From IMG/VR virus record IMGVR_UViG_2529293240_000018: 9,242 nucleotides of DNA; one strand, 5' to 3'. The notes beneath the pieces were generated by a model, which made no database searches, was not told the origin of the DNA, and saw only the letters and a list, made by a program, of their open reading frames with translations. Position numbers and translations under genes: made by a program. The stretch comes from a virus (Duplodnaviria > Heunggongvirae > Uroviricota > Caudoviricetes). Positions 2,032 to 4,455 of the stretch are shown here, one piece after another (the first letter of the stretch is position 1; every line of letters starts with the position of its first letter).

Positions 2032-2916
2032 TCAGGGGGCCAGTCTAGCAACAGTGAACGTTGTGTTGCCATTCATATCAATACCCGGCGGAGCCTTACG
2101 CCAGATGGCCGCCGCGATATCTGCCGGGCTGCCGCCGTACACGCCAACATAAAGCGAACCGGGTGTTAATGGATACTGACTGACTCCGGCTTTTTGTTCT
2201 GTTTTTTTCGGATTATGGGTGACGTAAACATCCACCACGTTTTCCACCGTGGAGAGTATTTCACCCCGGATGGCTTCCAGAATATTCCGGGCATTACGGG
2301 CAACTGAATTACGTCGGCGGTTTTCAAAGTCCGCACGGGTTTCCTCATCGCTGCCCGGCACACCGGCACTGGCGTTAGTGACACCTGACCAGCCAGGTAT
2401 TGCCTTATAAATTTTATTCAGCGTCCCCACAGGACAGCCGACGGGGCCGGTGGACAAATTCAGAAATACCGCATCAACCTGCCCTGATGCGCCGATAGTG
2501 ACGTCTGACTGACTGACATACTTATAACCGGCCTCATCCTGCGCCATACTGCCCGCCGGGATCAGCGTGCCAACCAGCCCGGTACAGGTCGCTGTTACTG
2601 TCGTACCTGTGGCCCCGCGGCGCTCCAGGAAATAAATCCTGCCTATTGCATCCTGAAAGCGACCACTGGAAAAGTCAGGGTTGATCTGGTTAACGATATA
2701 CAGCAACTGATCGTTTTTATCCGCAATAATGGCGCTTTCGCTGGATGCAAGTTGTCCCTGCGGACTGCTCAGACTGGTACTCATGGCCCCGCCCAGCGCC
2801 GCCGAAAAATCAGCAAGCCTGCCGCTCAGAATATCCGCTTCATCCGGCACATTCAGCCCGCTATCCGAAATCTGTACAGCGGGCACTGCGGTAGAAAAAG
2901 ATTTATTTTCACTCAT
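2032..2916 (-). pseudogene. Phage baseplate J-like protein (Mu gp47 / P2 gpJ-like), C-terminally truncated at the IS2 junction
   Basis: 294-aa ORF; the last 4 codons (RLAP) and the stop come from the IS2 terminus (2032..2047). Position downstream of gpV-like and gp46-like genes, with a 4-bp start/stop overlap with the upstream gene. Internal segment ETRADFENRRRNSVARNARNILEAIRGEILSTVENVVDVYVTHNP loosely resembles the gpJ core. Family call is by synteny and weak similarity. Confidence 0.5.
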
Positions 2917-3269
2917 AGCAGTACCGTAAAAATGTCATTATTGGTATCTGTAATACGCAGCACACCTGTTACTGTCCGGGTTTGATCAGCTGTGACCAGG
3001 CAGACAGCGGCGCTCACGGTCGGCAGTTTAAGTGCTTCCTGTTGCAGAGTGGCATTCACCAGTTGTGTGCCGGGCCAGTGTCCGAGGATGCGTGGCCAGT
3101 AAGGTATGCCAGCCGTTGAGTCGTACCAGCACTCCCCCAGAAAAGTACTGCACGCACACGCCACATCCTGAGCTACCGCATGGGGATTATCAGTAATGGC
3201 AAGATTTCCGGTATCATCAAGCAGGATATCCCATGTCCCGGTGTCAAGAAGAAGTGATCGTGACTGCAT
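2913..3269 (-). CDS. Phage baseplate protein, Mu gp46-like by position and size (118 aa)
   Basis: Intact ORF between the gpV-like and J-like genes in the canonical hub-V-gp46-gp47 order; no diagnostic motif recognised. Confidence 0.4.
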   Translation of the reverse strand: MQSRSLLLDTGTWDILLDDTGNLAITDNPHAVAQDVACACSTFLGECWYDSTAGIPYWPRILGHWPGTQLVNATLQQEALKLPTVSAAVCLVTADQTRTVTGVLRITDTNNDIFTVLL

Positions 3270-3281
3270 GTTTTCTCCTGT

Positions 3282-3959
3282 TTACCGGGGTCCCTGCGTG
3301 GTTGAGCCGCCGGACTCAACGCCGCCGTGAACGTGGTTTCCAAAATCAATACCCCCGATGTTCGAACCGCCGGAAAGCCTGGACTGCCCGGTAACGTCAA
3401 GCCCCTTACTGACGGCGGTATCGCCGTTCAGCGCAATTTGTGGTGAATTAACGGTGAAGCTTTTCGGCGCATTAATCACACCCTCAGGCGCGGATATCTC
3501 CACTTTCCAGGGAGATACAATCCGTATCTGGTTGTCATCAAATACCACAAACTGGACGGGATCACCGTTGAGCACGCCACCCAGCCAGATGGCATCAGCA
3601 TAATTATGGGTACGCTTTGATCCCGGCATCGCAGCCTGACGCGTGGCTTTTACCGCACTGATATCCCGATCGCAGATGGCAAGAAAACCGATATCCCCCA
3701 CATGTGGCGGCATAATCACCGCATTACCGCCCCCCTGTAGTCGCCATACGGGAATGTTATAAATCACCTCATGTTCAACCGGGGAACCGTCTGCTGCAAC
3801 GCCCATTACCATCGGTCGGGCCTCAATAAATCCCTCTTCCACGGCTACCACCCGTCCCAGAGTGATAAACGCATGACGTCCGAGAAACTGCCGCAGCATA
3901 AAGTCCTGTGCATTGATTTCGCTGTTCACGTCTGTCGGGTTACTGAGTGGTTGTGCCAT
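3282..3959 (-). CDS. Phage baseplate assembly protein V / central spike (Mu gp45 / P2 gpV-like), 225 aa
   Basis: C-terminal glycine-rich apex motif ...GGSNIGGIDFGNHVHGGVESGGSTTQGPR resembles the P2 gpV C-terminus (..HTHKHPGDSGGTTGSP..). Overlaps the upstream gene by 20 bp, typical of a phage morphogenesis operon. Confidence 0.65.
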   Translation of the reverse strand: MAQPLSNPTDVNSEINAQDFMLRQFLGRHAFITLGRVVAVEEGFIEARPMVMGVAADGSPVEHEVIYNIPVWRLQGGGNAVIMPPHVGDIGFLAICDRDISAVKATRQAAMPGSKRTHNYADAIWLGGVLNGDPVQFVVFDDNQIRIVSPWKVEISAPEGVINAPKSFTVNSPQIALNGDTAVSKGLDVTGQSRLSGGSNIGGIDFGNHVHGGVESGGSTTQGPR

Positions 3960-4455
3960 TTTCTTCAGCCCTCATCATGGTACAGTTGGAACTCCACGGA
4001 CCGCCCACGGTTCGCGAAGTAATGGTGTGTATCACCCCTGTGATCGTATAATCGCCCGTCATATCAGGCAGTGACGATTCCAGATGCGCTGGCCTGCCAG
4101 TAAAGAGATCGGGGCAGAATATCGTGGTGGCGCTGAGTCCGGTCATGGTGTAAACCGGATAGCCAGTCAGTCCGTGATCCGGCGAAATCAGTACCGGCGG
4201 AATATTCCGGTTCTGCCCTTTCGGCCAGATGGTGACTTTCTCCACATTCCCCAGATCAATGTTAATATCGGCGGCTGAAGCGACATCCAGCATTTGTTGT
4301 ACAACATTACCGGAAAAATGCGGGTCAGACAGACTGCGGCTAACCCCCTGGTTTTCAAATCCAAGCCCGACAGTTGACGCCAGCGCACGGATAATATCTG
4401 CAACCGCAACATCGCCCTTTGCGCTGAAATCTGCCGCCGGTGAAGTGGTCAACAA
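3940..4455 (-). pseudogene. Phage baseplate hub-like protein (Mu gp44 / P2 gpD-like by position), N-terminally truncated by IS911
   Basis: The first 5 codons of the 171-aa ORF (LLTTS, TTG start) are translated from the IS911 terminus (4441..4455); native sequence starts at 4440 in mid-protein. Identity is inferred only from position upstream of gpV. Confidence 0.4.

Follow-up and report, generated by a model that had tools for sequence, protein, structure and literature searches.

Four baseplate genes between IS2 and IS911 in Shigella flexneri J1713/SFJ17B are very probably the remnant of a temperate myovirus prophage

Among solved structures, the simple baseplates of Pseudomonas phage E217 (8env/8eon) and cyanophage Pam3 (7yfz) are the nearest models by sequence, if distant ones, for a group of four genes found in a 9242-bp stretch of DNA (virus record IMGVR_UViG_2529293240_000018). 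This whole stretch is called the window below, and all positions are window coordinates unless another record is named. The four genes lie between the insertion sequences (IS) IS911 and IS2 and correspond to a baseplate hub, a central spike, a sheath initiator and a baseplate J protein; their roles were assigned from the E217 and Pam3 structures. E217 itself is virulent, and the gene number of its initiator, gp34, places it apart from gp41-44. On the map of phage Mu, gp44, gp45, gp46 and gp47 follow one another as hub, spike, initiator and J. As set out below, the segment that carries the four genes very probably no longer functions and is left over from a temperate myovirus prophage of the Shigella flexneri J1713/SFJ17B chromosome.

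Judged by their proteins, the closest phages appear to be temperate myoviruses like Edwardsiella GF-2/Edno5. A nucleotide comparison by megablast with 50,697 phage records returned no match for the segment, and relatives were found at the protein level only: the J proteins of Pantoea PA-1, Klebsiella ST15-VIM1phi2.1 and Edwardsiella GF-2/Edno5 (Gofduovirus for the latter two) are 50-57% identical over ~97% of the length. In the annotation of Edno5, which we examined, the shared order runs through sheath, tube, chaperone, transglycosylase tape measure, plug, hub, spike, wedge/initiator, J, a DUF2612-type/structural protein and fibre. These Gofduovirus-like temperate myoviruses are complete phages without ipaH, unlike the prophage type to which the window remnant belongs.

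That prophage type is represented by an apparently complete prophage of ~38 kb in the enteroinvasive strain E. coli VL46 (NZ_CM177010.1 ~1,550,000-1,588,300). It starts with lambdoid-type regulation and replication genes, four tRNA genes and a lysis cassette, and continues with the small terminase (184 aa), a 539-aa protein in the large-terminase position (annotated as hypothetical), portal and head genes. Its tail region comprises a DUF3383 sheath, a tube, a transglycosylase tape measure, a Dit-like protein and, next to the hub, a plug that matches Pfam Pam3_gp18. The baseplate genes follow (hub 289, spike 225, initiator 118 and J 413 aa), and the prophage ends with DUF2612, fibre and fibre-assembly genes and an ipaH effector gene. 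The tRNA genes (Ile, Arg, Thr, Val; 12422-12728 of the VL46 record, L003) lie between DUF1133 and holin genes, a position typical of lambdoid late regions.

The same gene order is found in other ipaH-associated E. coli/Shigella prophages (VL40 and O121 strain 201805972), and all of them, VL46 included, are 99.5-99.8% identical in nucleotide sequence to the window over both of its prophage fragments, the baseplate block and a second one described below. The copies in VL40 and strain 201805972 have decayed too, eroded by IS2, IS600 and IS421. An ipaH gene (ipaHb, ipaH3/Hc or ipaHa) stands directly past the tail-fibre genes in three E. coli genomes (L001 4052-5878, L002 9016-10731 and L003 36493-38256), and this prophage family looks like a vehicle for chromosomal ipaH genes. 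Compared with these prophages, the window keeps ~3.1 kb of ~38 kb: the J C-terminus, DUF2612, the fibres, ipaH and a 15.2-kb middle part are absent. The chromosomal site differs as well, the window remnant lying beside trg and the E. coli copies near rcsC/yfaP, pphA/yebW or yfhH.

In the window, the phage-derived baseplate DNA occupies exactly 2048-4440 (2393 bp), and both of its ends are phage/IS junctions that were read directly. The ORF (open reading frame) list gives four minus-strand frames in the same direction, at 3940-4455, 3282-3959, 2913-3269 and 2032-2916. A preliminary description of this DNA, made from its letters alone, had reported four co-oriented minus-strand baseplate genes at 2048-4440, and the ORFs and junction coordinates match it to the base. 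Its mention of typical 4-20 bp overlaps holds for two of the three gene junctions (20 bp between hub and spike, 4 bp between initiator and J); between spike and initiator there are 12 bp and no overlap. The segment differs from the VL46 prophage by 4 substitutions in 2393 bp. In a megablast search of complete E. coli genomes it was 99.5-99.8% identical in nine of them, where its genes are annotated as 'baseplate hub protein', 'membrane-puncturing spike protein', 'contractile injection system sheath initiator' and 'baseplate J/gp47 family protein'. With 99.8% identity over 2.4 kb to baseplate genes annotated in nine E. coli genomes, it is not a chance arrangement of frames. Compensating frameshifts, suggested by two gaps in the BLAST alignments, were rejected, both gaps being end artefacts at the IS junctions.

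The first gene in the direction of transcription is the 3' part of a hub gene (3940-4440, minus strand), which by alignment to the VL46 hub encodes residues 123-289 of a 289-aa protein. Its ORF (3940-4455, 171 aa) begins in IS911: the first four codons, including a TTG start, come from the IS911 end. The ORF overlaps the IS911 orfB stop and has no clear ribosome-binding site. The fragment matched PHROG 196 'baseplate hub' (E = 1.9e-38) at the distal profile positions 204-369 of 536. Against Pfam E217_GP41 (PF22759) it scored 21.4 bits, below the 27-bit cut-off, whereas a full-length 289-aa homologue, identical over the shared part, reached 32.6 bits. A phmmer search of solved Protein Data Bank (PDB) chains with the hub gave no significant match (best E = 0.54), and no late-control-D/gpD profile matched either the fragment or the full-length hub in Pfam and NCBIfam scans.

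The second gene (3282-3959, minus strand) encodes an intact central spike, the membrane-puncturing tip, of 225 aa. All 225 residues are identical to those of the copy in the intact VL46 prophage, and a GAGG motif lies ~10 nt 5' of the ATG. The protein matched the Pfam spike N-domain PF18352 with 33.1 bits (gathering threshold 26.1) and GpV Apex, PF18946, with 25.8 bits (gathering threshold 20.8). Its PDB matches by phmmer were E217 gp43 (3.6e-9), phage SN gp41 (4.3e-9) and Mu gp45 (7.5e-5). Against the P2 V profile (TIGR01644) it scored 24.3 bits with a cut-off of 46.75, and the aligned part covers the C-terminal 74 residues only; the NCBIfam search returned nothing beyond this match and a 'orf58 phage' match, both sub-threshold. 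For the cluster to which the spike belongs, very many NCBI entries of E. coli, Shigella and Salmonella use the name 'oxidoreductase', and UniRef has 'Mu-like prophage protein gp45'. The label 'oxidoreductase' looks like a propagated misannotation.

The third gene (2913-3269, minus strand) is likewise intact and encodes a 118-aa sheath initiator, the analogue of T4 gp25, P2 W and Mu gp46, with 117 of 118 residues identical to the intact VL46 copy and an AGGAG 6 nt 5' of its ATG. The protein matched PHROG 120 'baseplate wedge subunit' (E = 2.3e-36). In PDB searches with phmmer it matched Pam3 gp21 (1.9e-7), gp35 of entry 9b45 (3.9e-6) and E217 gp34 (4.3e-6); Pam3 gp21 and E217 gp34 are structurally defined sheath initiators. 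A precomputed Pfam table assigns PF10934 Sheath_initiator to the identical 118-aa protein, whereas our searches of the local Pfam library at E ≤ 1 and of NCBIfam returned no family, a conflict in which library versions may differ. The Pfam profile for Mu GP46 did not match at E ≤ 1.

The fourth gene is the 5' part of a baseplate J/gp47 (wedge) gene (2048-2916, minus strand; codons 1-290 of 413), which starts in an ATGA overlap with the initiator gene. Its ORF (2032-2916, 294 aa) takes the final four residues and the stop codon from IS2. The fragment scored 45.1 bits against Pfam Baseplate_J (PF04865; cut-off 21.1, E = 9.9e-12), the full-length homologue 45.9 bits, and the fragment matched PHROG 6 with E = 1.8e-60. 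The full-length homologue matched E217 gp44 with E = 2e-25 in the PDB search. With residues 1-290 of 413 present, J is not full-length for wedge formation.

These searches placed all four translations in baseplate families and none in an unrelated one. The profiles that the preliminary description had expected were found in part: Baseplate_J matched, P2 V stayed below its cut-off, and Phage_GP46 and late-control-D did not match. Comparison with homologues bore out that the first gene is cut at its 5' end by IS911 and the last at its 3' end by IS2, since full lengths of 289 and 413 aa stand against ORFs of 171 and 294 aa, both of which are thus truncated. The two central genes, described as intact, are so. 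The term 'Mu/P2-type' fits gene order and function, but by sequence the matches are of the E217/Pam3 type. Specifically, Mu has the same functional gene order (hub, spike, initiator, J) but a weaker spike match, confined to the C-terminal spike region, and Mu gp47 matched J with E = 0.28 only; for P2 V-W-J the spike match is the sub-threshold one, although the spike does carry the GpV apex motif. Mu is a more distant relative; the intact VL46 prophage lacks a Mu transposase, and its genes for replication and lysis are of lambdoid type.

A second, truly Mu-like tail/baseplate cluster of strain J17B, SFJ17B_1683-1695, appears in the part of the PMC10732043 supplement available to us and is distinct from this locus. 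As listed there, it comprises a minor tail protein, a DNA circulation protein, GpP, V, GP46, J and a fibre, preceded by IS66-family and other transposases. The 'baseplate' entries SFJ17B_1686-1695 in that part of the supplement were considered as the locus studied here and rejected, as they belong to the Mu-like cluster.

AFOW01000022.1, a contig of S. flexneri J1713/SFJ17B, is 100% identical to the window over the whole 9242 bp, and the chromosome CP100042 of the serotype 3a strain J17B is 99.9% identical over 1-7710. An exact-protein look-up with the IS2-fused J ORF returned both records, and from their shared locus tags and protein records we infer that J1713/SFJ17B and J17B are one strain sequenced twice. 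An origin from the virulence plasmid was rejected, as a plasmid search with the whole window matched IS elements alone, with a coverage of ≤45%.

The baseplate block is not the only phage DNA in the window. Across IS911, which occupies 4441-5688 (1248 bp, minus strand, orfA/orfB; terminal repeats TGAAGTGG... inverted at both ends; 'IS911-family transposase' in matching RefSeq records), a second prophage fragment extends over 5689-6425 on the minus strand, up to the point where IS600 cuts it at 6426. It is 99.5% identical in nucleotide sequence to VL46 (L003 14870-15607) and runs in the same direction as the baseplate block. Adjoining IS911 are codons 1-93 of the 184-codon small terminase gene (5689-5967, minus strand), whose ORF (5686-5967) receives its stop codon from the IS911 end. 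The fragment matched Pfam Terminase_2 (E = 2.8e-27, profile positions 1-87 of 141), residues 1-93 are identical in VL46 and the window, and PHROG 51 was matched in this terminase-side block. Farther on lie a 67-aa ORF (6099-6302, minus strand; PHROG 4439) and the 3'-terminal 41 codons of a hypothetical gene for 198 aa (6299-6424, minus strand), whose ORF extends to 6451 inside IS600.

The two window blocks, 2044-4443 and 5689-6425, are collinear in VL46, where 15,223 bp (L003 15608-30830) separate them, and the IS911 breakpoints map to L003 positions 30831 and 15607. Because the flanking blocks lie that far apart in VL46, IS911 marks an internal deletion of 15,223 bp. The preliminary description had called the module an orphan; it is IS-bounded on both sides as described, but a collinear piece of the same prophage lies just across IS911. 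That small-terminase fragment also bears on whether the four genes come from a chromosomal tailocin or contractile injection system rather than from a prophage. Such an origin would fit the RefSeq name of the 118-aa product, 'contractile injection system sheath initiator', and these baseplate families are common to phages and tailocins. Against it stand the collinear terminase gene, the highly similar copies within complete prophages that have terminase, portal, head, lysis, replication and repressor genes, and the closest relatives in the phage collection, which are sequenced temperate phages; we therefore give a tailocin origin hardly any credence.

On the other side of the block, IS2 occupies 718-2047 (1330 bp, minus strand; ends TGGATTTGCCCC... 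and ...GGGGGCCAGTCTA, read directly) and is 99.6% identical to the annotated IS2 in E. coli record L001. It joins the cut J gene to a 3'-truncated IS3-family transposase ORF on the plus strand (1-717), broken at 718 by IS2 in an IS-in-IS junction, which we take to be IS150 InsK. Beyond this, AFOW01000022.1 and CP100042 continue with a methyl-accepting chemotaxis protein, a LysR regulator, HGLS, MdoG, DUF465 and an acetyltransferase, presumably trg-ydcI-ydcJ-opgD-ydcH-rimL, as judged from the E. coli K-12 gene order. Insertion of IS2 duplicates 5 bp of target and that of IS911 3 bp. Neither duplication is present: IS2 is flanked by ATGAG and GCAAC, and IS911 by CGG and CTT. Since target duplications are lacking and the flanks are non-contiguous, both elements mark rearrangement junctions and not simple insertions.

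Which of the two events came first is shown by independent contigs from other short-read runs. In contigs L006 and L007, J has the identical IS2 cut, but the plug and a complete or nearly complete hub are still there, whereas contig L008 carries both the IS2 and the IS911 junctions. The IS2 event is older than the IS911 deletion, because L006 and L007 have the IS2-cut J and retain hub and plug. The same contigs speak to the authenticity of the arrangement. The 100% match to the window is a draft contig from 2011, and in repeat-rich drafts IS copies often cause misjoins, so that an IS-bounded mosaic might be an assembly artefact. However, the independently made complete chromosome CP100042 has the same arrangement over 1-7710 at 99.9% identity, and contigs of unrelated runs reach IS2 (L006, L007, L008) and IS911 (L008) at the same junction bases. 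With these agreements, an artefact is extremely improbable.

From this anatomy a course of decay can be proposed. The parent phage would have had early and lysis genes of lambdoid type, together with a DUF3383 sheath and a simple baseplate of the E217/Pam3/GF-2 type. In its baseplate centre, which the four genes would have formed, the hub would close the tube end and J would make the wedge, a trimeric, apex-bearing spike would pierce the envelope, and the initiator would nucleate sheath polymerisation. First, an IS2 event cut J after codon 290; beyond IS2 the truncated IS150 now lies beside trg. Later, the IS911-associated deletion of 15,223 bp fused the small-terminase 5' half to the hub 3' part and took out the genes for large terminase, portal, head, neck, sheath, tube and tape measure as well as the Dit-like and plug genes. 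In a third step, IS600 and an IS66-family element removed the upstream lysis-region DNA. The breakpoints, the anatomy and the sequence in which the IS2 and IS911 events took place are shown by the data; by mechanism, each event could be an adjacent deletion or recombination between two IS copies. Decay of prophages through IS elements is well known from Shigella; for instance, pseudogenisation and rearrangement driven by IS elements are described there (PMC8072062).

Sheath, tube, tape-measure and fibre genes are missing from the window, as had been described, and none of these, nor a complete hub or wedge, was found in the window or within 10 kb on either side of it in CP100042. That chromosome has a phage holin gene on the upstream side of the IS66 remnants; therefore further debris of the same prophage lies outside the window. 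Because sheath, tube, complete hub and complete wedge are missing, no function is expected, and neither a particle nor a tailocin should be able to assemble from the remnant. The two central genes would then be intact solely through the recency of the decay. Signs of erosion are seen in related DNA: the spike of L006 is frameshifted (150 aa), the hub of L007 has 284 aa, and some hub entries called full-length in Shigella records are shortened, e.g. to 228 aa and 209 aa. The frameshifted spike and the shortened hubs are consistent with neutral decay.

Could the two intact genes still be expressed? A consensus scan of 1900-6500 found no sigma-70-like promoter on the minus strand, the scan being crude and blind to hybrid promoters at IS ends, and terminator-like sites in this interval were as frequent as expected from shuffled sequence. 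Four points weigh against a dead remnant. First, a scan of this kind would miss hybrid promoters formed at IS ends. Secondly, spike and initiator have intact frames with Shine-Dalgarno motifs and point the same way as IS911 and the terminase fragment, so that transcription and translation appear possible on sequence grounds. Thirdly, the strain may hold another, fuller copy of this phage type, which could use products of the remnant. Finally, the missing J 3' end, DUF2612, fibre and ipaH may have been relocated by an IS2-mediated inversion instead of being deleted.

In an alternative reading, intact spike and initiator are still expressed, either by read-out from IS911 or through a hybrid promoter that its right end would provide, and are retained for a function such as complementing another copy of this phage type in the genome or interfering with related phages. 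Both ORFs are at least 99% identical to the intact-prophage copies, IS911 orfA/orfB and the terminase fragment lie directly upstream on the same strand, and no convincing terminator separates them from spike and initiator. Moreover, the orfB stop of IS911 overlaps codon 2 of the hub-fragment ORF (TTGTTGA), which makes translational coupling conceivable, and related genomes have one to three copies of the baseplate module. Near-identity, however, is expected without selection, because the whole 2.4 kb has only the 4 substitutions noted above, and the frameshifted spike occurs in a sister contig, L006, that shares the IS2 junction. The shortened Shigella hubs, the lack of a promoter-like site and the missing partners (hub N-terminal part, J C-terminal part, sheath and tube) argue in the same direction. 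We consider expression with retention for such a role very improbable. The more specific proposal that spike and initiator were kept, expressed and exapted to supply or poison the baseplates of related ipaH-type phages is slightly less probable again. Read-through from IS911 into the two intact genes, which the preliminary description had put forward, is possible as judged from their orientation; on the reading of a non-functional remnant, any transcription would be incidental, entering from the IS911 or the terminase side and serving no function.

The remaining part of the window consists of IS DNA. IS600 (6426-7710, 1285 bp) is 97.7% identical, with three gaps, to annotated IS600 copies over 1264 bp, and its orfB is broken up into two ORFs, 6932-7201 and 7189-7668. 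The element sits within decayed minus-strand genes of the IS66 family (ISSfl3), present as several broken ORFs at 7711-9242. In IS911, the orfA start region (5590-5600, minus strand) reads ATGAAAAAAGAAAT and appears to be one A short, which would put the usual start ATG out of frame with the OrfA body; the usual OrfA start reads ATGAAAAAAAGAAAT, and the usual length of IS911 is 1250 bp, 2 bp more than here.

The finding is an ordinary one, and the genes are already annotated in public records. Its use lies in the bookkeeping of prophage decay and in the correction of public names, such as the 'oxidoreductase' label of the spike, and it matters little beyond annotation. If spike and initiator proved to be expressed and selected, the IS-driven prophage remnant would be a functional two-gene module and a modest case of exaptation. 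As it stands, the locus offers a clean, base-resolved example of the stepwise dismantling of a prophage by IS elements, with an IS2 cut in J followed by a 15.2-kb IS911-associated deletion, and it is typical of IS-driven genome decay in Shigella.

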